NCBI RefSeq assembly: GCF_000007985.2
Contig: NC_002939.5
Location: forward strand, 1,020,001 to 1,052,000
Reading direction: 5' to 3'
DNA: 32,000 nucleotides
Origin: Geobacter sulfurreducens PCA
GTDB lineage: Bacteria; Desulfobacterota; Desulfuromonadia; Geobacterales; Geobacteraceae
Position numbers and translations under genes: made by a program. The first letter of the stretch is position 1. Every line of letters starts with the position of its first letter. A model generated the notes under the pieces. The model worked only from the letters and a program-made list of their open reading frames with translations, was not told the origin of the DNA and searched no databases. Below, in pieces: positions 4,616 to 27,933 of this stretch.

Positions 4616-5908
4616 ATGTCGGCAGAAAAAGAACAGACTGTGGTGGAACGAGTAAAGAGCGCCGACTATTTCTTCCGATCCCTGGTTCTGGTCGCCGCCC
4701 TATCCATTGGGGCAATTTTGATGCTTTGCTGTTACGGCACGTACAAAATTTATTTAAACCATACCATCGCAACCGCCGAGGAAGATGCGGTGCAGGTGAG
4801 CGAGGCACTGCTGAAACATGAAGAAGTAAATATTATGGAGGGAGATAAGGAAAAGGGTTTTACCGTGACGATTTCCCCGGAAGAACTGCCTCACGTGGAC
4901 CAGCGGCTGCGGCAGTTCCTCCGCCCCTTCGGCATCGTGAAGATCAAGATCTACAACGAGAAGCGAACCATTGTCTACAGTACTGACAGCGCCATTATTG
5001 GAAAGCACGACAAGAATAACGTCCGCCTTGTCCGTGCCTTGCTCGGATTTGTCGATTCCAAGCTGGAGAAGTCAGAGGATGTGCTTGATATGGCCGAAGA
5101 GAAGGTGATTGAGGTTGATGTCGTTGAAACGTACGTTCCTATCATAGCCGATGACGGAAGGGTGATCGGCGCCTTCGAGATATACATGGATGTCTCCCGG
5201 TACACGAGCGATGTCCGCAATGTGGTGGTGTCCACGTTCGCAATCCTCCTGGTTGTATTGCTGTCCGTATTCGGGTGTTCCTTTTTCGTGATACGGCGGA
5301 TGACCGAACGCCTCAGGGAAGCAGAGGCGGAATTGAAGCGGATTGCGGTTACTGACCCCCTCACCGGTATTGCCAACCGGCGCCAGATCATTCACCGTGC
5401 CACCGAGGAGTTTGCTCGGCAGATGAGAAGGAAGCAGCAGCGGACCGCGGTTCCCAGCCTGGGGATTATCATGGCGGATGTGGACCATTTTAAGCAGATC
5501 AATGATACCTACGGTCACAGTGCCGGTGATGACGTCTTGAGGGAGATAGCCTCGCGGATCGGCTCCGTCCTTCGGCAGTATGATGCCGTGGGACGTTACG
5601 GCGGGGAGGAGTTCCTGGTCATCCTCTCCGAGACTGAGTTGGAAGAGACGTGGCATATTGCCGAGAGGATTCGACGCCGGGTGGCGGATGATCCGGTGGT
5701 CGTCGATAACCAGGTGATCCGGGTTTCCGCCAGTCTTGGCATCGCCACGGTCCTTGCCGGTGAGGCAGACTACCGGCCCGCGCTTGAGCGTGCCGATAAG
5801 GGGCTCTATCTGGCAAAGACTGCGGGGCGCAACCGGGTCATGTGTGCCGGCGACGAACAATGCCGCGGCGAACGATCCCGGCCCAAGCTGGAGGCCGTCA
5901 AAGGTTAG
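4616..5908 (+). CDS. Membrane-bound diguanylate cyclase (periplasmic sensor domain plus GGDEF domain)
   Basis: 430-aa ORF. Two TM segments flank a roughly 170-aa loop. The active-site motif is GGEEF (RYGGEEFLVIL), and an RxxD I-site (RQYD) lies 5 residues upstream of it. Confidence 0.9.
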   Translation: MSAEKEQTVVERVKSADYFFRSLVLVAALSIGAILMLCCYGTYKIYLNHTIATAEEDAVQVSEALLKHEEVNIMEGDKEKGFTVTISPEELPHVDQRLRQFLRPFGIVKIKIYNEKRTIVYSTDSAIIGKHDKNNVRLVRALLGFVDSKLEKSEDVLDMAEEKVIEVDVVETYVPIIADDGRVIGAFEIYMDVSRYTSDVRNVVVSTFAILLVVLLSVFGCSFFVIRRMTERLREAEAELKRIAVTDPLTGIANRRQIIHRATEEFARQMRRKQQRTAVPSLGIIMADVDHFKQINDTYGHSAGDDVLREIASRIGSVLRQYDAVGRYGGEEFLVILSETELEETWHIAERIRRRVADDPVVVDNQVIRVSASLGIATVLAGEADYRPALERADKGLYLAKTAGRNRVMCAGDEQCRGERSRPKLEAVKG

Positions 5909-6049
5909 GGTTATCTGTCTGTTGCTTTTAAGTTGTTGATTTATGCTGGAAGTAAGGGGGCGGGTGCAGGAAGGGACTGTCAGCAGATGGACATCATCCT
6001 GGGGTTCCACCAGGGGTCGAAGTTGCTTTGTTGGCTTACCCTTCGCTAC

Positions 6050-6175
6050 TCAACTAATCAACTCCGTACCCTTAGACGTCTCGGTGATTGTTTTATGCGT
6101 TATCTTATAGTTCCAGCCGAACACTTCGGTGGAAGCGACCAACAACAGCGTGGCCAGAATTAGTCTGAATATCAT
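6050..6175 (-). CDS. Possible 41-aa small hydrophobic-N-terminus protein (not in the supplied ORF track)
   Basis: My own translation gives MIFRLILATLLLVASTEVFGWNYKITHKTITETSKGTELIS. The ATG is 6 nt after the stop of the upstream lipoprotein gene, with a GAGGAG about 9 nt upstream. The evidence is coding potential only. Confidence 0.3.
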   Translation of the reverse strand: MIFRLILATLLLVASTEVFGWNYKITHKTITETSKGTELIS

Positions 6176-6181
6176 AACCAG

Positions 6182-6772
6182 TTACTCCTCTGGCAGTAAC
6201 ATATTGGCTGGCATGCCCATTTCTCTCATTTCGATGTTGCTTTCTCGGATTAGATTTCTCATTTTTCCCCTGTGCTCAACGGCGCAGCTCGGAAATGAGA
6301 CATGCCTTTTTCGCCTTTCCTTCATGCTCAATCTCTTCAACCTGAAGGTGGCCTTGTCGCCTTGCCAAATAACCTTATCCTTAGGCCAAACATTCTTGAG
6401 GCCGCTCCACGGATTGGGCGTAATCTGCTCATATCCCGCCTTGAAGATGATCACATCCATCTCTTCGATCATGGTGAGCACCAGCAGCCCCAGTCCCGGT
6501 ATGCTGAACTCGCCGTTCCCGTCGGTCAGGACCTCGCGGCTGTCGTAATAGGTGTGGCTCGCCCCGCCGGCGCCGGGATGCGCCTTGCTCCATTCGCCGA
6601 ATACTACTGCACCTTCGATCGGTTGGCCGGTTTTGGCATCGATTACCTTACCCTCGTACGGCCCGTCGATCCGCACGTAGTTGACGCAGCCGGTGCTGAC
6701 GAGGAATGCGGCGATGAGGATGAAGCAGTTGGTAACGCGTCGGGTTTGTTTCAGAAGTTGAGCAGCTTCCAT
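6182..6772 (-). CDS. Putative lipoprotein with a carboxypeptidase-regulatory-like (Ig-like beta-sandwich) segment
   Basis: I chose the internal ATG at 6772 (MEAAQLLKQTRRVTNCFILIAAFLVSTGC...) because it has an AAGGAG SD 8 nt upstream and a lipobox-like STGC. The segment YEGKVIDAKTGQPIEGAVVFGEW resembles CarboxypepD_reg domains. Confidence 0.6.
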   Translation of the reverse strand: MEAAQLLKQTRRVTNCFILIAAFLVSTGCVNYVRIDGPYEGKVIDAKTGQPIEGAVVFGEWSKAHPGAGGASHTYYDSREVLTDGNGEFSIPGLGLLVLTMIEEMDVIIFKAGYEQITPNPWSGLKNVWPKDKVIWQGDKATFRLKRLSMKERRKRHVSFPSCAVEHRGKMRNLIRESNIEMREMGMPANMLLPEE

Positions 6773-7023
6773 ATTCCATTCTCCTTGATGAAGTAGACTG
6801 GGTATCCGACCATCTTCTGTTCTCCGAGAATCGTTTCTTCCCGGAAGATGTGGCACTCGGCCCGATCGTTCGCCACATAGACAAGTTCAATCGGGGGGAG
6901 GTCTTCACTGAGCAGGGGGAGCCTGTCGCCGAGAGCGGTAACTGTATCCCGGTACGAATTACGGGGACACCACGAATTCTGTACGGATGGCCTACATGTC
7001 GTCCCACGAACATAAGGGCTCAA
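6751..7023 (-). pseudogene. Possible 5'-truncated gene remnant
   Basis: The frame is open for 90 codons. It has no ATG or SD until codon 70, and the track start is a TTG inside the repeat at 7013-7053. Only the C-terminal part (ELVYVANDRAECHIFREETILGEQKMVGYPVYFIKENGIWKLLNF) looks protein-like. Confidence 0.25.
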
Positions 7024-7094
7024 GGGACGTTGTTAATTTGTCGAATCCAGACGTAAGGGCTCAAGGGACGTTGTTAATTTGTCGAATCCAGACG
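7013..7094. repeat. Perfect 41-bp tandem duplication (TAAGGGCTCAAGGGACGTTGTTAATTTGTCGAATCCAGACG x2)
   Basis: Read directly: 7013-7053 is identical to 7054-7094. The second copy encodes the last codons and the stop of the Y1 transposase gene. Confidence 0.95.
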
Positions 7095-8054
7095 TGTATC
7101 GTGCTGAAATTCTGCTGTCGACTCGATTCGGGCAAGAACTTCCTCGCCGCGTCTTCTGGCTATTGCGACGCCTGATCTTGTCATACCCAACACTCTCCCA
7201 ACCTCTGCCCCGGTGTGGCCCTCTTCTACTGCGGTATAGCAAACGACCGCCCTCGCATCCAAAGTCCGCGGCAGACGAGACTTTGATGCTATGGCTTTCG
7301 GCGCGACTCCGTATTGGTCGGCAATGGTCGCAACAATCGATTCTATCGACATAGGACGTCGCAGTTGTTGGTGCAGGCATTCCTCGGTCTTCAGCTGTTC
7401 AACGAAATTTTCATCGCCAAGAATCCTTCTATCGCTGGCCGGACAGCCACCGCCGCTGGCTCCTGAACGCTTTCCGACAAGGTCCGGGCGCTCCCCCTGT
7501 AAAACACCATCGGCCATGAATTCGCGGTATGTGCGGCGTGATGCGGAGACTCCCGGCCCAAAATACCGCAGGACCTCGTTGATCCCCTGGCCCTCCAGAA
7601 CAATCTTCCCCATCAGCATTGCATGGCCGGACCACGGGAAGGTGTCCAGCGCGCCCAGATCGGCAACAATACCAGCACGCAAAGGATTCAGATGGATATA
7701 TCTCACCAGTTCCAGAAGGTACGAATCCTCATCGCACACGATCGACTTGTACCGATTCTGGAATAGATGCCCGGAGCGGTTGTGGCGCAGGTTGAACGAG
7801 ACGGCGTAGCCAGTAAGGAGCCTCCGCATGAAGGGGGCAAGCGGGGTCCGTGTTGGCCGGAGCAAAAGATGGAAATGGTTCGACATCAACGACCACGCCA
7901 GGCAGTCAACATCCATCTCCAGCAGAAGCTTCTGAAGCCGATTCCGGAAGTCCCACCGATCATCATCCGAGAGAAAGATGTCGCGGCGCTCTATGCCGCG
8001 AACGATCACGTGCTGCAAAAGATTAGGAATGTCAATTCGCGCTGATCGTGGCAT
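7074..8054 (-). CDS. Y1 (HUH) transposase of the IS200-like/REP-associated tyrosine transposase (RAYT) type, with a C-terminal HTH extension
   Basis: 326-aa ORF. It has an HUH motif (SNHFHLLL) and the catalytic-Tyr motif region RYIHLNPLRAG, typical of PF01797 transposases. The C-terminal roughly 90 aa resemble a DnaA-C-like HTH. Inverted repeats flank the gene. Confidence 0.8.
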   Translation of the reverse strand: MPRSARIDIPNLLQHVIVRGIERRDIFLSDDDRWDFRNRLQKLLLEMDVDCLAWSLMSNHFHLLLRPTRTPLAPFMRRLLTGYAVSFNLRHNRSGHLFQNRYKSIVCDEDSYLLELVRYIHLNPLRAGIVADLGALDTFPWSGHAMLMGKIVLEGQGINEVLRYFGPGVSASRRTYREFMADGVLQGERPDLVGKRSGASGGGCPASDRRILGDENFVEQLKTEECLHQQLRRPMSIESIVATIADQYGVAPKAIASKSRLPRTLDARAVVCYTAVEEGHTGAEVGRVLGMTRSGVAIARRRGEEVLARIESTAEFQHDTRLDSTN

Positions 8055-8088
8055 TGGTAATGAACTTTCAGATAGTTATATTGCTCTA

Positions 8089-8115
8089 TTCAACAAATCA
8101 ACAACGTCCCCTGAA
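8089..8115. repeat. Inverted partner (TTCAACAAATCAACAACGTCCCCTGAA) of the 7019-7045 and 7060-7086 cores
   Basis: By hand alignment, 23 of 27 positions are complementary to CTCAAGGGACGTTGTTAATTTGTCGAA. Together these repeats bracket the Y1 transposase gene. Confidence 0.7.
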
Positions 8116-8148
8116 TCTCCGGTCCACTATCCGTGTTGGGCATCGCTC

Positions 8149-8583
8149 CTACTCATGTGCTGATTCCCACCACTTTCTAACGAAGCGCCCACTCCGCCCG
8201 AAGAAGAGGATGGAGATATTTGATTTTTGGAGCTTTAATTCGATTTTTGTGAAAAACCAAACTGTCTGGTCTGAATAGGTTTCAACGTCAGATTTGCTAA
8301 CTACGACCTCGGGGGAACCAAAAGGCGACGTGCCGAGTCCTAAATATTCGGGAGAAGAATGTAGCTGAAGCATGTTATTGAAGCGAAGTGGCAACCGTCC
8401 GCCAATAAACATCGCTGATGTGAATCTTCTTCTTTTCTTCCATTCAATCTCTTTTCCGGGATACGCTTCCACTAACTGTCGCCAGCTCCCCAGCATCCCG
8501 CGAGAGATCAGTTTTGATAGCGGAATTGCTATCATGATCGCGACCACAAGAAATCCAGCAGCTAAAAGGATTGGGTTTTCCAT
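8149..8583 (-). CDS. Hypothetical membrane-anchored protein (144 aa)
   Basis: The ORF has an N-terminal TM helix (ILLAAGFLVVAIMIAIPL). I recognise no family. It lies between two attC-like repeats. Confidence 0.5.
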   Translation of the reverse strand: MENPILLAAGFLVVAIMIAIPLSKLISRGMLGSWRQLVEAYPGKEIEWKKRRRFTSAMFIGGRLPLRFNNMLQLHSSPEYLGLGTSPFGSPEVVVSKSDVETYSDQTVWFFTKIELKLQKSNISILFFGRSGRFVRKWWESAHE

Positions 8584-8599
8584 TTCTTATCTTTTCTTT

Positions 8600-8652
8600 G
8601 CTCAACGGGCGGGAGATCACCGGGCAGCTTTTAGGCCCGGTGCATCTTCCTG
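8600..8652. repeat. attC-like site C, left part, interrupted by the group II intron
   Basis: The layout is GCTCAAC, 11 nt, stem CACCGGGC, loop, stem GCCCGGTG, then CATCTTCCT-G. The remaining TTGGAC lies at 10562-10567, directly after the intron. The architecture is the same as sites A and B. Confidence 0.5.
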
Positions 8653-10561
8653 GTGTACGCCCGGCATGGGCGTGAACTAATGGGGTGCAAGTCCCCTGTA
8701 CGTAGAATCCAGCACTGTCGCGAGACAGGGTACCAAAGTACTAGCCGACGGCAAGGGCGCCTCCGCGAGGAGGGGTCTGAAGGAAGCCCGAGCGCAAAGC
8801 TATGAGCCGACGAACAGAAACAGCATACAAGGCCGGGGTGTCCGGGCAAGTCAGCACAACATGACGAAGTCCCACGGATTCAGGATGCCAAGGTAAATGC
8901 TGCGGTTGTGTAGCCACAGTTCACGTTCTTATCCGGGGAGACCTGCTCCACATGCTAGCGATGTTTGCTGGCGCGGCCTCTGGTAACAGCTGCCGTGATG
9001 GGGCAGGAGTCAGCAGAAGCCATAGTAGGCGCGGACGTTGCCGCCAGCGATCCGGCACCTGGAAACAAGCCCGGCGTCGTCACAGACAGCCGGGAAGCCT
9101 TACCCCGCCGAAGGGCCGAACGATGAAGAGGAGGTAAGCCCCAATGAGCTTTCACGACATACCGAACCCGACCGGGGGAATGCCCGTGGAGCGCGTCATT
9201 GACCGGCCAACTCCGGAAGAGCACCTACTGGAGCGGATACTTGCCACAGAGAACATGGACCTGGCGTGGAAACGGGTGCGGGCCAACAAGGGCGCACCTG
9301 GCGTCGATGGTGTTACCATCGACGCGTTCCCCGAACGGTTCCGGCCCCTCTGGGGCGATATCCGTGCATCGCTTGCAACAGGTACCTACCAACCACAGCC
9401 GGTCCTTCGAGTGGAAATACCCAAACCAACGGGCGGCACCCGCCCGCTGGGGATTCCCACCGTCCTTGACCGGCTGATCCAACAGGCAACAGCCCAGGTG
9501 CTCACGCCGATCTTCGATCCGGAATTCTCCGCATCGAGTTTCGGGTTCCGCCCCGGCCGCTCGGCACACAATGCCGTGCGGCAGCTGCGGGAGTATCTGC
9601 GGCAGGGCTACCGCATTGCCGTGGACATCGACCTTGCCAAGTTCTTCGACACGGTCAATCACGACCTCCTCATGACAATGGTGGGGAGGAGGGTCCGCGA
9701 CAAGCGGGTTCTCACCCTGATCGGCAGGTATCTCAGAGCCGGGGTGGAGGTTGACGGGCGGCTGGAAAAGACCCGCATGGGCGTACCCCAAGGGGGTCCG
9801 CTTTCCCCGCTTCTCGCCAACATCCTCCTCGACCACCTGGACAAGGAGCTTGAGAGCCGTGGCCACAAGTTCGTCCGTTACGCCGATGATTTCGTCATTC
9901 TGGTGAAGAGCGAGCGTGCCGGCGAGCGGGTCATGGGGAGCGTCAGGAAGTATCTGACGAACAAACTCAAGCTCACGGTCAACGAAGACAAGAGCAAAGT
10001 CGCCAGAAGCGGCGACTTGAGCTTTCTTGGCTTTGTCTTCAAGGGAACCAAAATCCTCTGGTCTGACCAGGCGTACAAGGAGTTCCGGCGCCGGGTCAGG
10101 AAGTACACCGGCAGGAGTTGGTTCGTCTCCATGGAGTACCGACTGAACAAGCTGTCGACCTACCTCCGCGGCTGGATGGGGTACTTCGGCATTGCCGAAG
10201 CCTACCGTGACATCCCGGAGATCGACGGCTGGATACGGCGGCGGGTGCGGCTGTGCTACTGGAAGCAGTGGCGGTGGTGCCGCACCAAGATTCGGAACCT
10301 GCTCAAACTGGGTGTACAGCTTGGCACATCCATCAGAGCAGGGCTGAACCGCAACGGTCCGTGGGCCATGTCCCGCAGGCTTGCCGCCCAGCACGGTATG
10401 ACCAACCAGTGGCTGAAGGATCAAGGACTTGTATCTGTCAAAGAACTGTGGGTGAAGATCCATTACCCGGCCACGGCCCGGTAACTTCGTCGAACCGCCC
10501 GGTGCGGACCCGCATGCCGGGTGGTGTGGGGGCTGGGGGGGTAAAACCCCCGGCTACCCGA
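8653..10561 (+). mobile_element. Group II intron (about 1.9 kb, ORF in domain IV, no endonuclease domain); ends are approximate to within a few nt
   Basis: - 5' end: GTGTACGCCCGGCATGGGCGTG resembles the GUGYG-plus-stem start of bacterial group II introns.
- Domain V: a 34-nt hairpin with a 2-nt bulge at about 10492-10525.
- Domain VI: a hairpin at about 10528-10559 with a bulged A at 10556.
- An RT/maturase ORF lies inside. Confidence 0.8.
9144..10484 (+). CDS. Group II intron reverse transcriptase/maturase (intron-encoded protein)
   Basis: 446-aa ORF with RT blocks including YADDFVILV. The X/maturase region is SWFVSMEYRLNKLSTYLRGWMGYFGIAEAY. There is no C-terminal HNH domain. Confidence 0.92.
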   Translation: MSFHDIPNPTGGMPVERVIDRPTPEEHLLERILATENMDLAWKRVRANKGAPGVDGVTIDAFPERFRPLWGDIRASLATGTYQPQPVLRVEIPKPTGGTRPLGIPTVLDRLIQQATAQVLTPIFDPEFSASSFGFRPGRSAHNAVRQLREYLRQGYRIAVDIDLAKFFDTVNHDLLMTMVGRRVRDKRVLTLIGRYLRAGVEVDGRLEKTRMGVPQGGPLSPLLANILLDHLDKELESRGHKFVRYADDFVILVKSERAGERVMGSVRKYLTNKLKLTVNEDKSKVARSGDLSFLGFVFKGTKILWSDQAYKEFRRRVRKYTGRSWFVSMEYRLNKLSTYLRGWMGYFGIAEAYRDIPEIDGWIRRRVRLCYWKQWRWCRTKIRNLLKLGVQLGTSIRAGLNRNGPWAMSRRLAAQHGMTNQWLKDQGLVSVKELWVKIHYPATAR

Positions 10562-10588
10562 TTGGACGTGTTCTTCTCTCTTCTTATG

Positions 10589-10939
10589 TTAGATTAAGAT
10601 CACAAGCCAGCCAAGGACCAGCACCAGTGGCGGCAATAGCACATCAGGAACCAATGATCTCCAATATGCCTTTTTAGAATCAAAGTCTTTACTTCTCCTG
10701 AATAGCAGCGAAAGCACAACGGCAACTGTCCAGAGAACTGCGAAGCATTTCACACTGAGACCGGCATATCCGTTCCAGTAAGTAAATTTCTCGGGGTCTC
10801 CAATTCCGGATTTATCAAGTGCCCTATCAGATTGCCAGCCGGAGACTAGGAATACAGCAACAAAGAAAAATTCTCCGGCTGAAAGAATGATTTGAATTAG
10901 GTTTGATTTTTTCATTCGTTTGTTGTCGTCCAACGTCAT
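10589..10939 (-). CDS. Hypothetical small integral membrane protein (116 aa, or about 108 aa from the second Met)
   Basis: The ORF has 3-4 hydrophobic segments and no recognisable SD. The annotated ATG lies 2 nt upstream of the terminal 7-mer of attC-like site A and codons 2-4 overlap that 7-mer, so the true start may be the downstream Met. Confidence 0.45.
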   Translation of the reverse strand: MTLDDNKRMKKSNLIQIILSAGEFFFVAVFLVSGWQSDRALDKSGIGDPEKFTYWNGYAGLSVKCFAVLWTVAVVLSLLFRRSKDFDSKKAYWRSLVPDVLLPPLVLVLGWLVILI

Positions 10940-10996
10940 AAGGCTGACCAGCCAGCCCAGTTTCTCCGGGCGAGCTGGTCGTGCTGCAAGTTGGAC
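10928..10996. repeat. attC-like site A
   Basis: The layout is GTCCAAC, 11 nt, stem GACCAGC, 21-nt loop, stem GCTGGTC, 9 nt, then GTTGGAC. The terminal 7-mers are perfectly complementary and fit RYYYAAC/GTTRRRY. The site begins 6 nt after the stop of the 221-aa ORF. Confidence 0.55.
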
Positions 10997-11002
10997 TCTC
11001 TC

Positions 11003-11668
11003 TTAATTCGACTCAGCTAACTCGCTTTTCTCCAGTTGATTTGCGGGCTGGCTTGACATCTCCTCCCAAAGCCCTTCTTGTTTTAATATTAATTTGAACT
11101 TTCGGTAAGTTATAGCCTTTCTTATGGGCTCACCAACTCCGTACATACACAATAAATATAATGACATTATTGCAATATATCCAAAAAACTGTTTTAAATT
11201 ATGTGGTGTTATCGCTATAAAAACCGCAATAAATACAATACTTATAAATAACGCCACTACACTTGACCATATTACTTCCAATTTGTTGAATATAGAAAAT
11301 TTGCACATAGCCTTTTCGTTATCACTTACTTCAAAAAATGTATAAACTTGTTTCAGATCTTTAATAGTAAACATGCCAATATCATAAAGCCTCATAATAA
11401 ATTTTGATTTAATTGGTGTGGTGTTGATATTTGTTGCAATCTTAAAAGCTTCCAGCAACTTCAGTTTAGTCATGAATTTATGTTCCTGAGTATTTTCGTC
11501 ACAACATTCAATGAGTGCTGAATATCTGGCAAGTTTTTTGGTTACATGGAATTTTTCGAAGTATTCGTTGGTTTTTTTGAGGAGTTGAAGTATTGCTGTG
11601 ATTGCGGCGACAACAACGGCAATATAGTAACCTACCGTATCATTTTTCAATAGCTCGATATATTCCAT
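11003..11668 (-). CDS. Hypothetical membrane protein (221 aa), strikingly AT-rich
   Basis: The ATG at 11668 gives MEYIELLKNDT.... The GTG start in the track lies inside the IS inverted repeat. The protein has three predicted TM helices, and I recognise no family. Confidence 0.6.
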   Translation of the reverse strand: MEYIELLKNDTVGYYIAVVVAAITAILQLLKKTNEYFEKFHVTKKLARYSALIECCDENTQEHKFMTKLKLLEAFKIATNINTTPIKSKFIMRLYDIGMFTIKDLKQVYTFFEVSDNEKAMCKFSIFNKLEVIWSSVVALFISIVFIAVFIAITPHNLKQFFGYIAIMSLYLLCMYGVGEPIRKAITYRKFKLILKQEGLWEEMSSQPANQLEKSELAESN

Positions 11669-12908
11669 CACTGCTGTCCCATAGTTTCTAAAGCAGCACC
11701 AGTTGTGGCGAAGCCTCTACTTTCGGTGGTTTGAATAGGCTTTCAAGGTCTCGCCGCTCGAACAAATTCAGCTGTAATAACCGTAATATCTGCTGCATCG
11801 ACGATCCGATCTTTGACAGAAACGTCAAGTATGCCAGTACCAGATACACGCACAGGGCAATCCAGATCTGTGTGAGTACGGCATTCTCCGAGGTGCCGAG
11901 GAAGGTCTTGATCTTCAGGTTCTGTTTGATCCACTTGAAGAACAGTTCGATCTTCCAGCGCTCTTTGTAGAGATCCGCCACGATTGCTGCTTTCAGGTGA
12001 TGCGCATTGGTCACGAAGCGGTAATCGTTGCCGTCATCGGCGATGAACTGGACAAGCCGCAGTTTGTCCTTCATCCCTTTGAGCCGAATCTCCTGGTCAA
12101 GAATGACGCCCGTTGCTTTCCTGCCGGGACGCTTCTTGAAGTATTCCACCAAGGCGTTCTCTTTCAGCCGGGTTACGAAGAAGATGCCGTTGGTCGTTAG
12201 TTGCTGCCACCAGTCGTAATCGGTGAAGCCCCGGTCAAAGACGGCCAGTGAACCGGCAGGCAGTTGTAGCATCCTGGCCCAGGACATCTCGTGCTTCTTG
12301 CCTTCGGTCACATCGATGAACTCAGGCAGATAGCCGTCAGCATCAAGACCGACATGCATCTTTATGGCACCCTTCTTCTGCCGGTAGGTGGCCCAAGGGA
12401 ACGCCTCCAGACAGAGATTGATGGTGGTGGCATCCAGCAGATAGACTTTTTCATCGATCTTGAAGCGATGACTGGGTGCAACTGCCTTGCATCGATGCAG
12501 CATTTTGTAAAAGAGCTCTTTGTACAACTCATGCGGCTGTTCATCGTTCACTCTGGCCAAGGTGGTACGGGAAACCGTCTTCATGCCCAGATGATAGAGC
12601 TTGTGGCCTTGGGCCTTGAGGTTTTCCACGATATCCCGCAGACTTTTTCTGCCGGAAAGTTGACAAACCATCATCGCCATGAACTGCGACCAACGGTTAA
12701 AAGAACGAAACTTCTGCCCGATGTGATGCTTGCGGGCAAGGGATTCAAATTCATGTCTCTTGAAAAAACCGACAACTTGGTTAAGGACTGTGTTACAATG
12801 TGCCACGGCTCTGATCTCCTTGTTAATATTGGTGTTTTGGCGAACTCAATATATCACAAGTAGCTCTCAGGGCCTCTCTTTATTCAGTTAAACTATGGGA
12901 CAGCAGTG
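11669..12908 (-). mobile_element. IS4-family insertion sequence (1240 bp)
   Basis: The terminal IRs are a perfect 19 bp (CACTGCTGTCCCATAGTTT at 11669-11687; its reverse complement at 12890-12908). A 9-bp direct target duplication ATATTCCAT lies at 11660-11668 and 12909-12917. Confidence 0.9.
11688..12806 (-). CDS. IS4-family DDE transposase
   Basis: The 372-aa ORF fills the IS. The N-terminal region (MAHCNTVLNQVVGFFKRHEFESLARKHHIGQKFRSFNRWSQF) is typical of DUF4372-type IS4 transposases. A DDE_Tnp_1-like C-terminal part follows. Confidence 0.9.
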   Translation of the reverse strand: MAHCNTVLNQVVGFFKRHEFESLARKHHIGQKFRSFNRWSQFMAMMVCQLSGRKSLRDIVENLKAQGHKLYHLGMKTVSRTTLARVNDEQPHELYKELFYKMLHRCKAVAPSHRFKIDEKVYLLDATTINLCLEAFPWATYRQKKGAIKMHVGLDADGYLPEFIDVTEGKKHEMSWARMLQLPAGSLAVFDRGFTDYDWWQQLTTNGIFFVTRLKENALVEYFKKRPGRKATGVILDQEIRLKGMKDKLRLVQFIADDGNDYRFVTNAHHLKAAIVADLYKERWKIELFFKWIKQNLKIKTFLGTSENAVLTQIWIALCVYLVLAYLTFLSKIGSSMQQILRLLQLNLFERRDLESLFKPPKVEASPQLVLL

Positions 12909-13156
12909 ATATTCCATGAATAATCTCCCCTCTTGTTGGTCCAATACTGGATGGTTACAGGCTTCGCGGAGTTTATGTCTTAAATTCGCCTTTTTCCAGT
13001 CTTCCTTTTTACTCCACCCGCCAACTTCTCAGATACCGAACATGAAACCAGCAAACTCCTCTTCGTTTTCGCCGCCCGCGCCGCCACACTCCTGCAACTC
13101 AGGGTGACTCCGCCAGCAAGACCGACATACTCCTCGGTTTGCTTTGCCTTTTCGTC

Positions 13157-13214
13157 GTACAACGCCACAAGCCTGACCGGCGGGTTTCTAGGCCGGTCGT
13201 GGCGCTAGTTGGGC
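13157..13214. repeat. attC-like site B
   Basis: The layout is GTACAAC, GCCAC-AAGCCT, stem GACCGGC, 10-nt loop, stem GCCGGTC, GTGGC-GCTA, then GTTGGGC. It has inner and outer pairings with asymmetric bulges. It lies 3' of the 262-aa ORF, 70 nt after its stop. Confidence 0.5.
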
Positions 13215-13284
13215 ATCGCTTTTGTTAATAAGTTAAATAAGTTACCAGCGTCTCGCAGTCTCCGTCATTATTCTTTCAACTTAT

Positions 13285-14073
13285 TCATGATAGCTGCATC
13301 GCAGAATTTGCTTTGATAGTGGCTGTGATGTCTGGGCGTCCCGGAGTGACGACCTCGTTGAAGATTTCTTGGATGAAAGAAGCGACCCAGTATTGGGAAT
13401 CCTCTTCAGGTTGCATGCTGCAATCAAGCGCATCTATATAATCGCTGGACATCATGTAGTGGTCATTCAAGAAAAAGATGTAGCCCAGATGAAGAACGAA
13501 GATATCTCGCACATCTTCAGCAAATCTATCAAGCCACCAGCCACGATTCTCGATGTAAATCTCGTTGTCGTTGAGCATTACGTTTCGGTAGAAGTTGTAA
13601 TGTGTATGGTCATTGCATCTGGCGCGCAAGCGCTTGTATCTGTCATCGACGTAAAGCAGGTCGTTGATCGGCTTAAGCGCTTCTGAGGTTCTAACATATT
13701 GGGACATCACCCGGAACTCTGGGAGGCTCTCCTTTCCCTGGAGCCAGTTGTGTATTTTCTCGACGACAAAGTTCTCGATGCTGAAGTTGTTCCGCAGGTA
13801 CAGGTTGGAATAGACGTTGATTACCGCAGAATCGTAATACTTCCGAAGCAGCGCGTATGCGTCATTGATGCGCCCCGCGAGAAGAATAGTCTTGATCGAT
13901 TCAACGGTACCCTGCATTGAGGAGTAGACGTAGGTGTCAATGTTGCAGATGGACTTTGTACCCATCGTTGTGAACAAAAACACAGACATGGCCAATTGCT
14001 CATAGAACTCCGCGTATCGCTCAAGTTCGATAAATACTCGATGCTCCGTATATGCCTTGTCTGTTACCTGCAC
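13285..14073 (-). CDS. Hypothetical 262-aa soluble, mostly helical protein
   Basis: GTG start with a GAGGAG SD 7 nt upstream, and no TM segments. It contains RLRARCNDHTH, which fits the loose HEPN Rx4-6H pattern. The family assignment is unverified. Confidence 0.65.
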   Translation of the reverse strand: MQVTDKAYTEHRVFIELERYAEFYEQLAMSVFLFTTMGTKSICNIDTYVYSSMQGTVESIKTILLAGRINDAYALLRKYYDSAVINVYSNLYLRNNFSIENFVVEKIHNWLQGKESLPEFRVMSQYVRTSEALKPINDLLYVDDRYKRLRARCNDHTHYNFYRNVMLNDNEIYIENRGWWLDRFAEDVRDIFVLHLGYIFFLNDHYMMSSDYIDALDCSMQPEEDSQYWVASFIQEIFNEVVTPGRPDITATIKANSAMQLS

Positions 14074-14606
14074 GGCTATGCTCCTCTATGTATCAAGGCC
14101 CAACTCTTATAAGGCCCCAGTCAGTCAATAGGCAAAATGGTGCCCAACCGATTTTGAGTCGTTTTCTTTGACGAATCTATCTCGACATCTTATCCGTTCT
14201 GACTTGATTTCCAATACTGGGTCAGGAAAGAATCCTGCACCAAACTCTTATCAAAGCTCAATTCGCTGCGGTTGTTGCTGCTACAGCGATTGCGAAGGCA
14301 TTCCTTGCGCGGCTTAGAAACTATCCCGTTCCCTCGGCCGTCCCATTCATGAAGCGTGCTCATCGCTGGTGCGAGGCACAGTTGATCCCGGTTTCCGGCG
14401 AGGGGCAGAACATTCAAAAGCTGAAAAGAATAGATTCAGTTATGTAAGGAGCGGGACAGGGCTCCAATCTCGTTAACTTGCTCCCTGAGCATCATCAAAT
14501 CGACCGGTACGTGTTCTCAGCCGCACCTCGTTGTCTTTCACGGTCGTGGTCATGCTTGCTCGTGTGGCTCCAGTTGTGCACTAAGCTGCCTCTGTCCCCT
14601 CCAGCT

Positions 14607-15653
14607 TTACGCCGTTGCCAAAAACTTTTCCCGGTCGAACGGCACATTGTTTTTCAGCATGTAGAAAATCGCTCGTGCCAGTTTGTGGGCAAGGATCGAA
14701 ATCGCTTTCCCTTTGCCATGAATCTTGACCAGTTTCTCCATCAGGATTTTTGCCTGGGGATTGTGGCGCACGAAGAACACAGCGGCCTCAGAGAAGGCCC
14801 ATTTCAAATGGACGTTGCCTATCTTGGAACCGCCGACCCCCTTTTTCTTTCCCGCTGATTCGTGGGCACATTTCACCAGCCTGCAGTAGGAAGAGAAGTC
14901 TTGCACGGTCGGGAAACGATTTATGTCATGGATCTCGTAGAGCATTACCAGGCCCAGCACCTTTCCCACGCCGTTGATTGAGCGCAGAAGTTTGAGGGCA
15001 TGCAGGTTGTGTTGCCGGGCCGTTTTTTCTATGTCCGGTTCGAGGACATTGATGACATCGTCAAAGGCGTCGATCATGGCAACGTCAATTTCGATAATTT
15101 TCCTCACTTCCGGATCGTGGAAGAGCTGAGCTACTTCATGGCGGTTCTCTTCGACTCCGAGATCAATGCCAAGAGGAGCCAGATTATATTGGGTTACCGT
15201 GTTCTGGATGTGTGCCATAAGCTCAGCACGTTTTCTGACGAAAAAGTTCCGGCGGCGCAGGAGGTCCCGTGTTGCCCGCATTTCCGGCGGGTAGACGTAG
15301 GCTAAGGGAAACATGCCGCCGCGGAGCAGCACAGCAATCTTGTGGGCGTCAATCTTGTCGCTCTTTGCTTTGCCACCGTGGACTGCCTTCATGTAAAGGG
15401 CGTGACCGAGCACAAACTCGATCTTTTCATTACGGCAAAGGTCTGCCAGCCAATACCATGCGAACATGCATTCCACGCCGACAACCAAGTCCTCCCGGTA
15501 GGGTGCCACGAGGCGAAGGAAGCTCTCAGGATTGCAGTTGATTTCGCGATGAACCAGCACGGTCCCTTCCGAGTCGAGAATGCAGACGTACTTTTTTCGG
15601 GCATGAAGATCAATTCCGCAGTAGTACTTGTGAGTCTTAGTGTAAAATCTCAT
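14607..15653 (-). CDS. IS110-family (DEDD) transposase
   Basis: 348 aa from the ATG at 15653 (MRFYTKTHKYYCGIDLHARKKYVCILD...) with an AAGGAGG SD. It has an N-terminal RuvC-like DEDD region and a C-terminal Transposase_20-like region (GVGKVLGLVMLYEIHDINRF). Confidence 0.9.
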   Translation of the reverse strand: MRFYTKTHKYYCGIDLHARKKYVCILDSEGTVLVHREINCNPESFLRLVAPYREDLVVGVECMFAWYWLADLCRNEKIEFVLGHALYMKAVHGGKAKSDKIDAHKIAVLLRGGMFPLAYVYPPEMRATRDLLRRRNFFVRKRAELMAHIQNTVTQYNLAPLGIDLGVEENRHEVAQLFHDPEVRKIIEIDVAMIDAFDDVINVLEPDIEKTARQHNLHALKLLRSINGVGKVLGLVMLYEIHDINRFPTVQDFSSYCRLVKCAHESAGKKKGVGGSKIGNVHLKWAFSEAAVFFVRHNPQAKILMEKLVKIHGKGKAISILAHKLARAIFYMLKNNVPFDREKFLATA

Positions 15654-15732
15654 GTGTAAGGCCTCCTTTGGAGAATGGGTTTCGCCAAAGTCCAGCATAC
15701 GCTAATCCGTATGCCCAGAGGGGGCCTTACAC
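15654..15732 (-). promoter_or_regulatory. Structured leader of the IS110 transposase
   Basis: On the minus-strand RNA, GTGTAAGGCCCCCT (about 15731-15718) pairs 13 of 14 with AGGAGGCCTTACAC (15667-15654), which contains the SD. This long-range stem sequesters the SD. It encloses two inner hairpins: GCATACG-N6-CGTATGC and CTTTGG-N13-CCAAAG. Confidence 0.5.
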
Positions 15733-16178
15733 AGTATCCCATTATTGAGCAGTTAGTGTGATGCATATCCAATGGCCCCTGGGGGGCGGGCCAAGCTAAC
15801 AACCTGGAACTACATAATAATAGCCCTCAAAGAACGTATTTTCAGGCCTTAGGGCCTCATTTTCGTCGGCCAAATTGGCATTGTAAGGCTCCGCCTTCTC
15901 GAATCAATCCCCCTCACACATCACTAACACCCTTTCATAGATCAATTACCATCCCCGTTCAATCAGGAAAACCCCTATACTCCGCGGTTGTGAGCCTCGT
16001 TTCAGGAGATTATGTAACCAGAGCCGTTTCGATGACCTTGATGGATGCAGGCTGCGTAAGGAGCGCGGTCTCCACGGGGTCAAAACTAGATGTTTTCGCA
16101 AAAATGCAAAAATAACTGGATTTTTTTTTGGTGTTTACATACTATCCTCCGTGACTCCGCACAGATGGAAGAGGCCCC

Positions 16179-18146
16179 ATGCGCCGGTATCTTTTCAGCT
16201 TCATGACCAATCTAAAGCTCCGCTGGAAGATGCTGGTACTGGTGATGCCGCTGGTGATCATTCCCATTTTCGTGGTGGGCGGGGTGATCGGCTACATCTC
16301 CACCAAGCAGGCCTACCGGGGGATCACCCAGACCTCCCGGGACGACCTGGAGCACATGGCCAGCTTCACCATCGATCTCCTCAATTCCCACTACCAGCAG
16401 TTCCAGGTCTACAAGCAGGACAAGATGCGGACCGTGCACCTGGAACTGGCCACCCTCACCAATCTTTCCTACAACCTGGTCGAGGCCCAGGACCGCCAGT
16501 ACCGGGCCGGCAAGGTGGACCTGCGCACCGCCAAGGAGGAGGCCCGCAAGGCCCTCAAGCGGGTCAGCGTCGGCATGACCGGCTATATCTACGCCATGAC
16601 CACCAAGGGGCTGCTGGAAGTCCACGTGGCGCGGGAAGGGGAGAACGTCTACGACGAGAAGGACGAGAACGGTCGCCCCTTTATCCGGATCATGTGCGAG
16701 AACGCGCTCAAGGCCAAGCCGGGGGAGGTGCTCTATATCGTCTACCCCTGGCGCAACGAGGTGCTGGGAGACAAGTATCCCCGCAAAAAGGTGGTGGCTT
16801 ACCGGTACTTCCCCCAGTGGGACTGGATCATCGCGTCGGGCGGCTATCTGGAGGAGACCTATGAGGACGTGGCCTTCGAGCGCCGCTCCTTTGCCGAGCT
16901 GAAGGAGAAGATCCGCAGCAAGAAGGTGGGGGAGACCGGCTACATCTTCTGCATGGACGATACGGGGACCTTTACCATCCACCCCTCGGGCGAGGGGCAG
17001 AATTTCCTCAATGCGGTCGACTCCAGCGGCAACAAGTTCATCAAGGAGATGGTGGAGAAGAAGCGCGGGTGGATTCGCTACCCCTGGCGCAACAAGGGAG
17101 ACGCGTCGCCGCGGATGAAGCTCGTGCGCTACGACTACTTCAAGCCTTGGGGATGGATCGTGGCGGTCGGGTCCTATGAGGACGAGTTCTACCGGGAGGC
17201 CAACAAGATCCGGGGGCGCATCGTCACCACCATGACGCTGCTGACCATCCTCACCGGCCTCGTGGCAACGGGGCTGGTTTTTCTCGCCGCCAAGGTGTTC
17301 ACCGACCCCATCAACTACATGATCGACGTGATCAGGAAGGTAAAGAAGGGGCGTCTGGACGAGCAGATGGAGGTTGACACCGGCGATGAGCTGGGCGAGC
17401 TTGCCGGCGCCTTCAACCGGATGACCACCATCATCCGCCAGAACAAGGAGATGGAGGCGAGCCTGGCTCAGCAGGGGAAGATGGCATCGCTCGGCGTCCT
17501 CTCTTCGGGCGTTGCCCATGAGATCAACAACCCCCTGGGGGTGATCCTCGGCTATGCCTCGTACCTGGAGTCGAAGATCACCGAAGAGGACCCGACCTAC
17601 AAATATATCCACGAGATCAAGCGCGAGAGCAAGCGGTGCAAGAAGATCGTCCAGGATCTCCTCTCCTACGCCCGGACCCCCAAGCCCGCCCTGGAGCCCA
17701 CCGACATCAACGACCTCCTGGGTCAGATCGTGGGGTTTGCCGCCAACCACACCGACATGCACCACGTGACCGTGGTCCGGGAGTTCGCGCCCGACTTGCC
17801 GCCGGTCATGGCCGACGGCGACCAGATCCGCCAGGTGGCCATCAACCTGATCCTCAATGCCGGCTCCGCCATGACCGCCGGCGGCGTCCTTACCGTCCGG
17901 ACGTTCCTGGACCAGGAGCAGTACGTGAACATCGTGTTCAGCGACACCGGCTGCGGCATCCCCCGCGAGGATCAGGAGCGGATATTCGAGCCGTTCTTCA
18001 CCACCAAGACCAAGGGGACCGGCCTGGGGCTCGCCATTACGCGCCAGATCGTGGAGATGCACCACGGCCGCATCGCCATCGACAGCGAGGTGGGGCGCGG
18101 CACCGACGTTACCGTGCGCCTGCCCCTGGAGCCGGAAGAGCTGTAG
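16179..18146 (+). CDS. Sensor histidine kinase with tandem Cache-type periplasmic domains, HAMP, HisKA and HATPase_c
   Basis: 655-aa ORF. Two TM segments bracket a roughly 300-aa region with a duplicated YPWRN...W(D/G)WI motif. The HAMP region is DELGELAGAFNRM, the H-box is GVAHEINNPL, and the G-boxes are DTGCGI and GTGLGLAI. Confidence 0.9.
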   Translation: MRRYLFSFMTNLKLRWKMLVLVMPLVIIPIFVVGGVIGYISTKQAYRGITQTSRDDLEHMASFTIDLLNSHYQQFQVYKQDKMRTVHLELATLTNLSYNLVEAQDRQYRAGKVDLRTAKEEARKALKRVSVGMTGYIYAMTTKGLLEVHVAREGENVYDEKDENGRPFIRIMCENALKAKPGEVLYIVYPWRNEVLGDKYPRKKVVAYRYFPQWDWIIASGGYLEETYEDVAFERRSFAELKEKIRSKKVGETGYIFCMDDTGTFTIHPSGEGQNFLNAVDSSGNKFIKEMVEKKRGWIRYPWRNKGDASPRMKLVRYDYFKPWGWIVAVGSYEDEFYREANKIRGRIVTTMTLLTILTGLVATGLVFLAAKVFTDPINYMIDVIRKVKKGRLDEQMEVDTGDELGELAGAFNRMTTIIRQNKEMEASLAQQGKMASLGVLSSGVAHEINNPLGVILGYASYLESKITEEDPTYKYIHEIKRESKRCKKIVQDLLSYARTPKPALEPTDINDLLGQIVGFAANHTDMHHVTVVREFAPDLPPVMADGDQIRQVAINLILNAGSAMTAGGVLTVRTFLDQEQYVNIVFSDTGCGIPREDQERIFEPFFTTKTKGTGLGLAITRQIVEMHHGRIAIDSEVGRGTDVTVRLPLEPEEL

Positions 18147-24981: not shown

Positions 24982-27933
24982 ATGAACAGCAAACGATATC
25001 GCTCAGACACGCGACCGGCCGCATGCGCCATCCGCTTGCTTGCCGTGCTGGTTCTGCTGGCCGGTCTGGCGGCCCGGGCCGAAGCCGGGCCGGCCCTTCC
25101 GGTCATGGTCAAGGATATCAACACCGCATCGGTACCCGTCTCGTCCAGCCCCTCCGGCATGACGGCCAATGGCGGCATCCTCTTCTTCAGTGCCGGCGAC
25201 GGCGCCAACGGCCCGGAACTCTGGAAGAGCGACGGTTCCGCGGAAGGGACGGTGCTCGTCAAAGATATCAATGCCGGGCCCGGGCCGGGCACGCCTCAGA
25301 ATTTCTCCGTCATGAACGGGATCACCTATTTTTCCGCCATGGACAGCTTCCGCGGCGTGGAACTCTGGAAAAGCGACGGCACGGCTGCTGGGACGGTCAT
25401 TGTTAAGGATATCTACCAGGGGGGCGAATCATCCAACCCCCTGGAGTTGACAGTGGCAGGGAACACGCTTTTCTTTTCCGCCGATCATCCCGTCTATGGC
25501 AAGGAACTCTGGAAGAGCGACGGCACCGCCGAGGGAACCGTTCTCGTGGCCGATATCGCTGCGGAGGCGAGTTCGACGCCCCAGTGGCTGAGGGCGGTCA
25601 ACGGTACGCTCTTCTTCGCAGCCGACGACGGTCTCCATGGCCGGGAGCTCTGGAAGAGCGACGGGACGCCGGAAGGCACGGTGATGGTCAAGGATATCAA
25701 CCCCTTCGGCGGGTCCGATCCGGGCGAGATGGCGGTGTCCGGCGGCATCCTCTACTTTACCGCCGATGACGGTGAAAATGGCCATGAGCTCTGGAGGAGC
25801 GACGGCACCGCCGAAGGGACGTATCTGGTCGCCGATATAGCCCCCGGCGAAGAGAGTTCCTACCCCTTCGAGCCGGTGGGCATCAATGGCCTGCTCTATT
25901 TTACGGCCAATGACGGCTACACCGGGTACGAACTCTGGCAGAGCGACGGCACCCCCGAGGGGACGACGCTGGTGAAGGATATCAATCCGGACGGCGAAGA
26001 CTCAATGCCCTGGGGCATAGTGGGCATGGACAGGTACGTCTACTTCGCGGCCGATGACGGCGTCAACGGGTATGAACTCTGGCGCACCGACGGCACCATG
26101 GGGGGGACGGAGATGGTTGCCGACATCCAGCCCGGGATGGGCGGTTCCATGTACAGCTCTCCCCGGCTGGTGAACGGCATGCTCCTCTTTGCCGCCGACG
26201 ACGGAGAGCACGGCATCGAGATATGGAAAAGCGACGGCACTGCCGAGGGCACCCTCATGGTCAGGGATATCATCCCGGACGCCATGTCGTGGCCATCCGA
26301 GCTCATGGTGCATAACGGTACACTCTACTTCGCAGCCGACGACGGCGTAAACGGCACGGAGCTCTGGAAGAGCGACGGAACGGCCGAGGGCACGGTGCTG
26401 GTGCGGAACATTGCACCCGAGACGGCCAGCAGTCTTCCCTACCAACTGGCCGTGATGGGGACCACGGTATTCTTTGCCGCGGCCGATACCGATCTTGACT
26501 TTGATGTCTGGAAGAGCGACGGTACTGCTGATGGTACGGTGCTCGTCAAGGAGATCAATCCCGAAGGGTGGGCCTATCTGGACCGGTTGATGGTCGTTGG
26601 TGATACCCTTTACTTCCTGGCCGAGGACAACTATGGAGAGGCCAGCCATGGCATCGAACTCTGGAAGAGCGACGGCACCGCCGAAGGCACCAGGATGATC
26701 AAGGACATCAACCCCGGGCCCCAGGGGATATTCTTTCCCGGCAACCCCAATTATCCCTTCTCCATGGCCGCCGTCGGCACTACGGTGTATTTCCCCGGTT
26801 TTACCGCGGGCAATGGTCATGAACTCTGGAAGAGCGATGGTACCGCCGAAGGGACGGTCCTCGTGAAGGATATCAATCCCGTTTTCGATTTCTCCTCATT
26901 TCCCGACAGTTTTACCGCCATGAACGGAGCGGTCTATTTCGTGGCCGATGACGGTACGCATGGCGCCGAGCTCTGGAAGAGCGACGGTACCGCCGACGGC
27001 ACCCGGATGGTCAGGGATATCTATCCGGACGGCATCGGCTCCAGTCCCTTGTCGCTCACGGTCATGAACAACGTCCTCTACTTTAGTGCCGCCGGTGACG
27101 AAGGTGGCTACGGACTCTGGAAGAGCGACGGTACCGCCGAGGGGACCACGTTCGTAAAGGACACCTCTCCCTTCAATCACTCGCTTCTCCCTGCCTACCT
27201 GACCCCCGTAAATGGAACTCTCTTCTTCGCCGCCCACGACGAAAACGCCGGATTCGAGCTCTGGAAGAGCGACGGGACCACCGACGGCACCGTGCTGGTG
27301 GCCGATATCCTGCCGGGGGAAGGGGCGTCCAATCTGCGCTTGCTTACCGGCGTGAACGGTACCCTGTTTTTCGTGGCCGACGATGGAGTGCACGGCGAGG
27401 AGCTCTGGAAAAGCGACGGGACGCCCGAGGGAACGGTGATGGTGAAGGACATTTTTCCGGGGGATGGGATATCTGGCATCACCTGGATCAAGGTGATGAA
27501 CGGGATGCTCTATTTTGCGGCCGACGACGGAGTGAACGGCCTCGAACTCTGGCAGAGCGACGGAACCGCCGAGGGGACGGTGCTGGTCACGAACATCGTG
27601 GCGGGCCAGGGGAGTTCGTCTCCCTCGTATCCGGTGGTGGCGGGCAATACACTCTACTTTGCCGCTACTGACGGAGGCAGCGGCGTCGAGCTCTGGAAGT
27701 TTTCGCCCGATCCGCCCGATGGTGATCTGACCGGCAACGAGACACTGGAGATCCCCGATGTGCTGCGCGCTCTGCGGATTGCGGCCGGCATCGCGGCTCC
27801 CACCGTGGCCGACTTCATCCACGGCGATGTGGCCCCCCTTGACGGAAACGGCCGCCCCGCCCCGGACGGCGTGATAGATATGAACGACGTGCTGGTTGTC
27901 TTACGCAAGATGCTGGGCGTCGTGTCGTGGTGA
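24982..27933 (+). CDS. Secreted ELWxxDGT-repeat protein (about 17 repeats) with a C-terminal dockerin-like module
   Basis: 983-aa ORF with a signal peptide ending ARAEA. I count 17 copies of (E/D)LW(K/R/Q)(S/T)DGT..GT..V.DI at roughly 50-aa spacing. The C-terminus has two Ca-loop-like segments, GDLTGNETLEIPD and GDVAPLDGNGRPAPDGVIDMNDV. Confidence 0.9.
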   Translation: MNSKRYRSDTRPAACAIRLLAVLVLLAGLAARAEAGPALPVMVKDINTASVPVSSSPSGMTANGGILFFSAGDGANGPELWKSDGSAEGTVLVKDINAGPGPGTPQNFSVMNGITYFSAMDSFRGVELWKSDGTAAGTVIVKDIYQGGESSNPLELTVAGNTLFFSADHPVYGKELWKSDGTAEGTVLVADIAAEASSTPQWLRAVNGTLFFAADDGLHGRELWKSDGTPEGTVMVKDINPFGGSDPGEMAVSGGILYFTADDGENGHELWRSDGTAEGTYLVADIAPGEESSYPFEPVGINGLLYFTANDGYTGYELWQSDGTPEGTTLVKDINPDGEDSMPWGIVGMDRYVYFAADDGVNGYELWRTDGTMGGTEMVADIQPGMGGSMYSSPRLVNGMLLFAADDGEHGIEIWKSDGTAEGTLMVRDIIPDAMSWPSELMVHNGTLYFAADDGVNGTELWKSDGTAEGTVLVRNIAPETASSLPYQLAVMGTTVFFAAADTDLDFDVWKSDGTADGTVLVKEINPEGWAYLDRLMVVGDTLYFLAEDNYGEASHGIELWKSDGTAEGTRMIKDINPGPQGIFFPGNPNYPFSMAAVGTTVYFPGFTAGNGHELWKSDGTAEGTVLVKDINPVFDFSSFPDSFTAMNGAVYFVADDGTHGAELWKSDGTADGTRMVRDIYPDGIGSSPLSLTVMNNVLYFSAAGDEGGYGLWKSDGTAEGTTFVKDTSPFNHSLLPAYLTPVNGTLFFAAHDENAGFELWKSDGTTDGTVLVADILPGEGASNLRLLTGVNGTLFFVADDGVHGEELWKSDGTPEGTVMVKDIFPGDGISGITWIKVMNGMLYFAADDGVNGLELWQSDGTAEGTVLVTNIVAGQGSSSPSYPVVAGNTLYFAATDGGSGVELWKFSPDPPDGDLTGNETLEIPDVLRALRIAAGIAAPTVADFIHGDVAPLDGNGRPAPDGVIDMNDVLVVLRKMLGVVSW
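25190..27700 (+). repeat. Intragenic array of roughly 150-bp degenerate repeats (core GAACTCTGGAAGAGCGACGG)
   Basis: This is the DNA-level reflection of the ELWxxDGT protein repeats. The core recurs nearly identically many times. Confidence 0.85.

Follow-up and report, generated by a model that had tools for sequence, protein, structure and literature searches.

A probable copy of the group IIC-attC intron G.s.I1 in the attC site of an integrase-less cassette array of Geobacter sulfurreducens PCA

A 32,000-nt stretch of the Geobacter sulfurreducens PCA chromosome (NC_002939.5, positions 1,020,001 to 1,052,000, forward strand; hereafter the window, with positions counted from its first letter) contains a group II intron on the plus strand, situated behind a DNA stem-loop and surrounded by small open reading frames (ORFs) on the minus strand (8149-8583, 10589-10939 and 11003-11668). 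This arrangement raises the questions of which intron this is, where exactly it begins and ends, and whether the stem-loop belongs to a genuine attC site of an integron cassette or merely resembles one. We assign window 8655-10562, with a probability of about 93%, as a copy of the intron G.s.I1 that retrohomed into the attC site of a cassette encoding 116 aa, within an integrase-less array located between a GGDEF gene and a Cache histidine kinase gene.

Class, identity and extent of the intron

The following features were assigned to the intron:

8655-10562, plus strand: group IIC-attC intron G.s.I1, 1908 nt, 5'-GUACG ... CCCGAU-3' (from the empty sites, the published primers and the end of the RF00029 match)
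9144-10484, plus strand: intron-encoded protein (IEP), 446 aa, reverse transcriptase and maturase, with YADD at residue 246 (Pfam, TIGR04416)
10494-10525, plus strand: Domain V, with CGC (10496-10498) at the catalytic-triad position (by inspection) and a 2-nt bulge at 10514-10515 (RNA fold, RF00029)
10527-10560, plus strand: Domain VI, with the bulged branch-point A10556 as the 7th base from the 3' end (RNA fold)

A preliminary description of this DNA, made from the letters and a list of ORFs, had proposed a group II intron on the plus strand. Rfam searches agreed with this proposal: models of domains I to IV, RF02001 (8759-8927, 132 bits) and RF01998 (8972-9116), and the model of domains V and VI, RF00029 (10493-10562, 44.6 bits, full model length), matched the plus strand, each above its gathering threshold. 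The IEP, which matches TIGR04416 at 418 bits, contains only the Pfam domains RVT_1 (residues 92-298) and GIIM (residues 312-385); as described before, no endonuclease domain was found in a Pfam search of the 446-aa protein. When the IEP was compared with all solved structures, the top match was the GsI-IIC reverse transcriptase (RT; 459 bits, E = 1e-136), with other matches including 7uim_D (a group II intron RT/maturase, which we take to be a class C enzyme; 362 bits), LtrA (152 bits) and the maturase-RT chain 6me0_C (139 bits). The difference between 459 bits for GsI-IIC RT and 152 bits for LtrA is in line with the class C assignment previously made by eye. In the fold of Domains V and VI, which was made on the 3' terminal 77 nt, G10497 of the CGC sits in a G-U pair. 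A CGC triad with its G in a G-U pair is the form found in class C introns. Judged from its sequence, the element is a full-length group II intron of class C.

The intron could be identified by comparison with published data. Leon et al. (2010; PMC3001079) recorded G.s.I1 from G. sulfurreducens PCA (AE017180, IEP NP_953517), in an integron in which vapBC is situated on the side of the 5' exon. The primers used in that study for cloning its positions 1-200 were GTACGCCCGGCATGGGCGTG and CTGACTTGCCCGGACACCCC. The first of these primers matches window 8655-8674 exactly (position 1 = 8655), and the reverse complement of the second matches 8835-8854 exactly (position 200 = 8854). The window IEP is exactly WP_164930422.1 of G. 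sulfurreducens, and the intron is 99.95-100% identical to copies in ten further loci (L080-L089). One of these, in the chromosome CP078092.1, differs at 1 nt (99.95% identity over 1914 nt) and is located in an attC of a minus-strand cassette array, with MazE/PIN (vapBC) genes on its 5' exon side; it adjoins a divergent intI-like gene, the N-terminal part of which best matches the integron integrase model TIGR02249. In addition, the contig DNKT01000047.1 of a metagenome-assembled genome (MAG) matches window 5900-10563 at 100%, breaking at the intron end.

The ends of the intron were fixed with intron-free alleles, a search for which had been recommended in the preliminary description. Such alleles were found in three assemblies of public sequencing runs (L096, L097 and L098), in which both neighbouring cassettes are present and the flanks are 100% identical to the window. 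The empty site reads ...CATCTTCCTGGT/TGGACGTG... (a slash marks an insertion point or junction here and below), given in other cuts as CATCTTCCTGGTTGGAC, ...GCCCGGTGCATCTTCCTGGTTGGACGTGTTC... and CCTGGTTGGAC. The insertion is thereby placed between the two T's of GTTGGAC, read CCTGGT/TGGAC. In the window the corresponding junctions are CCTGGT/GTACG (5') and CCCGAT/TGGAC (3'), and the comparison permits only G8655 as the intron start, bar a one-base slide on T. The extent 8655-10562 is agreed on by four independent lines: i) the empty sites, ii) the numbering of the published primers, iii) the RF00029 match, which stops at 10562, together with A10556-CCC-G-A-U, which conforms to the 3'-end consensus AXX(X)XRAY (PMC7923331), and iv) the relative N.e.I1 of Nitrosomonas europaea, with the junctions TTGT/GUGCG and CCCGAU/U. 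The junctions first proposed, 8653-10561, were thus displaced by 2 nt and 1 nt, respectively, and the rejoined sequence CCTG-TTGGAC derived from them is missing one G.

A 5' end at 8653 (GUGUACG) was also considered, the conserved block starting from GTGTACG in 20 of the 21 related loci alignable at the 5' junction. This candidate was rejected, since the GT at the apparent start of conservation is the final dinucleotide of the exon, which belongs to intron-binding site 1 (IBS1) and is conserved as such.

The interrupted attC site and the readings it allows

The site and the elements involved in its recognition are as follows (EBS, exon-binding site):

8600-8654, plus strand: 5' exon, the bottom-strand attC up to the insertion (read from the sequence; DNA fold)
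8600-8606, plus strand: R' box GCTCAAC (cassette junction mapped here)
8618-8625 and 8635-8642, plus strand: attC stem arms (DNA fold)
8643-8652, plus strand: spacer CATCTTCCTG (read from the sequence)
8651-8654, plus strand: IBS1 (UGGU), a variant of the published UUGU
8653-8654, plus strand: first two R'' bases, GT (read from the sequence)
8856-8859, plus strand: EBS1 (ACAA), in the hairpin loop GCACAACA (8854-8861) of domain I, inside the RF02001 alignment
10563-10567, plus strand: start of the 3' exon, the remaining R'' box T-GGAC (empty sites; T10563 = IBS3)
8149-8583, minus strand: mobile 144-aa cassette ORF, downstream of the interrupted attC and found behind four attC sites
10589-10939, minus strand: 116-aa cassette ORF, the attC of which bears the intron (ORF list; attC intact in L096-L098)

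As had been described, the sequence that remains without the intron makes up an attC-like site (GCTCAAC...GTTGGAC). The rejoined plus strand, 60 nt in length, reads GCTCAAC-gggcgggagat-CACCGGGC-agcttttag-GCCCGGTG-catcttcctg-GT/TGGAC and carries both the RYYYAAC and the GTTRRRY boxes. The DNA fold of this 60-mer has an energy of -14.4 kcal/mol (z = -3.3 vs shuffles), with two single-base bulges on the 3' arm. The spacer between stem and GTTGGAC is N10, not the N9 of a neighbouring intact attC (site A, see below) to which the layout had been likened. The intron starts 12 nt 3' of the hairpin 8618-8625/8635-8642 and is antisense to the minus-strand cassette ORFs, which agrees with the IIC-attC behaviour attributed to it in the preliminary description.

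The 3'-arm bulges of the plus strand fit a bottom-strand reading; since the criterion of extrahelical bases was ambiguous at other sites, however, the strand was assigned from cassette junctions instead. In other genomes and metagenomes, we found the 144-aa cassette preceded by four different attC sites, and in all four contexts its shared sequence starts at (cc)G/TTGAGC, corresponding to window 8606->8600 on the minus strand. Identity of the window to strain CP072789.1 (L093) stops at 8609. The cassettes are therefore on the minus strand with their junction at GCTCAAC (R'), so that the plus strand is the bottom strand and the intron-bearing GTTGGAC is R''. The cassette junction marks the integrase crossover, and the intron is located about 50 nt from it. 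The motif GTTGGAC by itself is not above chance in the window (3 matches vs 4.05 expected), and the case for an attC is therefore built on the hairpin and the cassette shuffling instead of the motif. The host site is a genuine attC and no mere look-alike, and the intron in turn corroborates the attC reading of the neighbourhood, as was originally suggested.

The target of the IIC-attC introns known from the literature is R'' on the bottom strand, with the consensus TTGT/T (PMC7923331), as compared with TGGT/T in the window. EBS1 (ACAA), the complement of UUGU, pairs with IBS1 (UGGU) at positions -1, -2 and -4 (3/4). The relatives compared were 79 related loci from genome collections, with 58 distinct sites used for counting exon ends. 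The commonest last four bases of the 5' exon were TTGT (22/58), followed by TGGT (10/58); position +1 was T in all 51 of 51 related introns, and a YYYAAC box was present 40-75 nt upstream in 19 of the 58 sites, vs 3.1 expected from shuffles. The EBS1 loop covaries with the exon end (ACCU/GGGU in L034, UAAC/GUUA in L052 and CAAU/AUUG in L064), which confirms the assignment of EBS1 as well as the junction position. A search for EBS1 and EBS3 had been advised at the outset; it succeeded for EBS1, whereas EBS3 was not located. Class C introns characteristically use short (3-4 bp) EBS1-IBS1 together with EBS3-IBS3 pairings, a DNA hairpin taking over from IBS2; the short EBS1-IBS1 pairing, the T at +1 and the upstream hairpin of the window are in keeping with this.

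A related intron is present in many copies per genome in MAGs of Oceanispirochaeta (L064-L079; 52-57% IEP identity). These introns are located after terminator-like hairpins and T-runs, with the exon end TTG and the EBS1 loop CAAU. The Oceanispirochaeta copies suggest that a single IEP lineage has changed over between attC and terminator targets.

It could be argued that the intron is an ordinary terminator-targeting member of class C, lying behind a hairpin that resembles an attC by chance: terminators are the main insertion sites of class C introns (PMC4424553), the spirochaete relatives of the same lineage follow motifs of hairpin plus T-run, and GTTGGAC alone is not enriched in the window. 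However, the hairpin was not called on either strand in a terminator scan and has no T-run, the RYYYAAC...GTTRRRY boxes are present with a cassette junction demonstrated at R', this intron is otherwise known from an attC of an intI-bearing integron, and the intron belongs to the published IIC-attC set (PMC3001079). We regard this explanation as highly improbable. Still less credible is the proposal, made in the preliminary description, that the intron lies exactly at the integrase crossover (G/TT of R') and splits the recombination junction. It was favoured by the occurrence of GTTGGAC in the rejoined flanks with its G before the junction first proposed, but the empty sites read GGT/TGGAC, so that the cut is GT/T, and the box that was cut is R''. 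The recombining box is R', as the cassettes are on the minus strand with their junction at GTTGAGC (8606->8600), the opposite box, and the insertions of IIC-attC introns reported in the literature are likewise at R'' (PMC7923331).

The existence of occupied and empty alleles might, instead of recent retrohoming, reflect precise loss of the intron or integrase-mediated exchange of cassettes, and the cassettes of this array have clearly been shuffled between strains. Cassette exchange, however, swaps whole cassettes at R', and exact removal of 1908 nt inside R'' with flanks that are 100% identical would not result from it. The difference of 1 nt in 1914 between the two copies fits recent copying. 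To our knowledge, there is no common mechanism for precise deletion of an intron at the DNA level. Loss or exchange is consequently considered unlikely.

Some observations weigh against the reading of 8655-10562 as a G.s.I1 copy retrohomed into an attC. EBS1 and IBS1 mismatch at -3 (A opposite G) in the window, and likewise in the integron copy (UAGU); with two contiguous pairs plus one more, the pairing is weak even for a class C intron. There is no integrase in the window, so the site of the intron is outside a complete integron, and neither a promoter nor a gene could be made out on the plus strand immediately before this intron copy. The empty sites (L096-L098) are from short assemblies of sequencing runs, with no finished genomes among them. 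Finally, the neighbour-joining tree of 71 IEPs, in which the window IEP is placed beside those of G. hydrogenophilus and Geomonas, contained no non-attC class C outgroup; G.s.I1 was put inside the IIC-attC clade by the authors of PMC3001079.

The surrounding cassette array

Two further attC sites of the array are intact:

10928-10996, plus strand: intact attC, site A, with a 7-bp R box and a stem (fold z = -3.5)
13157-13214, plus strand: intact, unoccupied attC, 50 nt of which (13160-13209) are identical to the CP078092.1 locus (L080)

The region from about 6000 to 16000 has a lower G+C content and forms an island bordered by the GGDEF gene (4616-5908) on one side and the Cache histidine kinase gene (16179-18146) on the other. 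Conservation of these flanking genes extends across G. sulfurreducens-like chromosomes, among them CP002031.1, CP010430.1, CP074693.1 and CP072789.1. What lies within the island (about 5900-16200) is different in every G. sulfurreducens-like genome compared (L090-L095), and single cassettes, such as that of the 144-aa ORF, recur in other orders across these genomes. No integrase domain was found in any ORF between 5900 and 16200, and a tblastn comparison of the window with the first 202 aa of the G. sulfurreducens integrase yielded no match. From these comparisons the array is assigned as an integrase-less attC cluster which varies between G. sulfurreducens strains.

The stretch 13160-13209 is identical to the 5' exon plus attC of the integron copy of G.s.I1 in CP078092.1 (L080 2462-2511). 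As an empty site, 13157-13214 offers a potential further target, GCGCTAGT/TGGGC.

The array also holds a split attC around 7020-8114 and three other mobile elements. The element at 7020-8114 lies inside an attC and has imperfect terminal inverted repeats, its left end being tandemly duplicated (41 nt). Its 326-aa product (7074-8054, minus strand) combines an N-terminal Y1 domain (IS200-like/REP-associated tyrosine transposase-like) with a C-terminal DnaA_C-like helix-turn-helix. To the right of the element, 8118-8142 represents the 3' half of an attC, the intact form of which is present in CP072789.1 (L093 19384-19440), and in CP002031.1 (L090) the same element is located elsewhere in the array, with its right end multiply duplicated. 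An IS4-family element (11669-12908; transposase 11688-12806, minus strand, with DUF4372 and DDE_Tnp_1) has perfect terminal inverted repeats of 19-21 nt and a 9-bp target duplication, ATATTCCAT. It sits just upstream of the ATG of a 221-aa cassette ORF, and the corresponding site is empty in L096-L098. A gene for an IS110-family transposase (14607-15698) is also present within the cassette array. One subgroup of IS110, IS1111-attC, targets attC sites. Outside the array, a 983-aa ORF at 24982-27933, unrelated to the intron, consists mostly of a unit of about 144 nt (48 aa), with a conserved ELWKSDGT-type motif, repeated 17 times in tandem.

Mobility, outward promoter and relation to known introns

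The window intron is like G.s.I1 (PMC3001079) in that the primers for positions 1-200 and the promoter sequences at 73-100 and 168-195 are matched exactly, in sequence as well as in numbering. It differs from the published copy in its site, which is the attC of the 116-aa cassette at another chromosomal position, within an integrase-less array, and in IBS1, which is UGGU instead of UAGU. The gene on the 5' exon side in the window is divergent from the IEP and downstream of an outward promoter, whereas vapC of the published copy is convergent. In its antisense orientation, its location at the bottom-strand R'' and the TTGT/T-type target, the intron resembles S.ma.I2, other IIC-attC introns of mobile class 1 integrons, and N.e.I1. 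An IEP lacking the endonuclease and an outward promoter in domain I are further features in common with introns of the S.ma.I2 type. The IEPs of the N.e.I1 loci of Nitrosomonas europaea are about 60% identical to that of the window, and the intron ends agree, except that the 5' end is GUGCG as opposed to GUACG in the window. Unlike the introns of class 1 integrons, that of the window is located in a chromosomal array of non-resistance cassettes without integrase. Its IEP architecture, short EBS1-IBS1 pairing and insertion a few nt past a DNA hairpin are also those of terminator-targeting class C introns such as B.h.I1 and GsI-IIC, but the hairpin in the window is an attC with R and L boxes and no T-run.

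Based on the biology of class C introns (PMC4424553, PMC7923331), the intron ribonucleoprotein would recognise the bulged hairpin of the single-stranded bottom strand and reverse splice into this single-stranded DNA, at a position set by the short EBS1-IBS1 and EBS3-IBS3 (A-U) pairings. Since the IEP has no endonuclease, a nascent strand at a replication fork would probably prime cDNA synthesis. The antisense orientation should prevent the intron from being spliced out of cassette transcripts. The occurrence of occupied and empty alleles with otherwise identical flanks points to recent mobility.

A promoter directed out of the intron was also identified:

8727-8754, minus strand: P1out of G.s.I1 (TTGCCG-N16-TACCCT), toward the 144-aa cassette ORF, identical in sequence to the published promoter

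P1out was mapped to positions 73-100 of G.s.I1 by rapid amplification of 5' cDNA ends (5'-RACE) and was active but weak in an Escherichia coli assay (PMC3001079). A second candidate, predicted by BPROM in the same study (TTGCCC-N16-TATGCT, positions 168-195), is the reverse complement of window 8822-8849. It is plausible that P1out could drive the promoterless 144-aa cassette at this locus.

The family, its behaviour, the host genus and the intron are all already published. The preliminary description had anticipated an extension of IIC-attC behaviour to a Geobacter-like host, but G.s.I1 and an intron of Geobacter sp. (record CP001390) are already in the list of IIC-attC introns in Table 3 of PMC3001079. 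A second insertion site and a presence/absence polymorphism may be the only unreported points. The value of the present analysis is mostly one of annotation: the region of about 6000-16000 can be annotated as a cassette array with real attC sites, and the intron junctions are fixed to the base. The 60-nt site also provides a ready-made wild-type target for mobility assays, one which tolerates a mismatch at IBS1 -3.

More tentatively, G.s.I1 may now be mobile in natural G. sulfurreducens populations, copied presumably from the intI-bearing integron into the integrase-less attC cluster, where it may provide a silent 144-aa cassette with a portable promoter or represent an intermediate of cassette formation as envisaged by Leon and Roy; we hold this broader picture to be possible, if doubtful. 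The polymorphism of occupied and empty sites constitutes natural evidence of a class C-attC intron that is still mobile, in a chromosomal and non-clinical setting.

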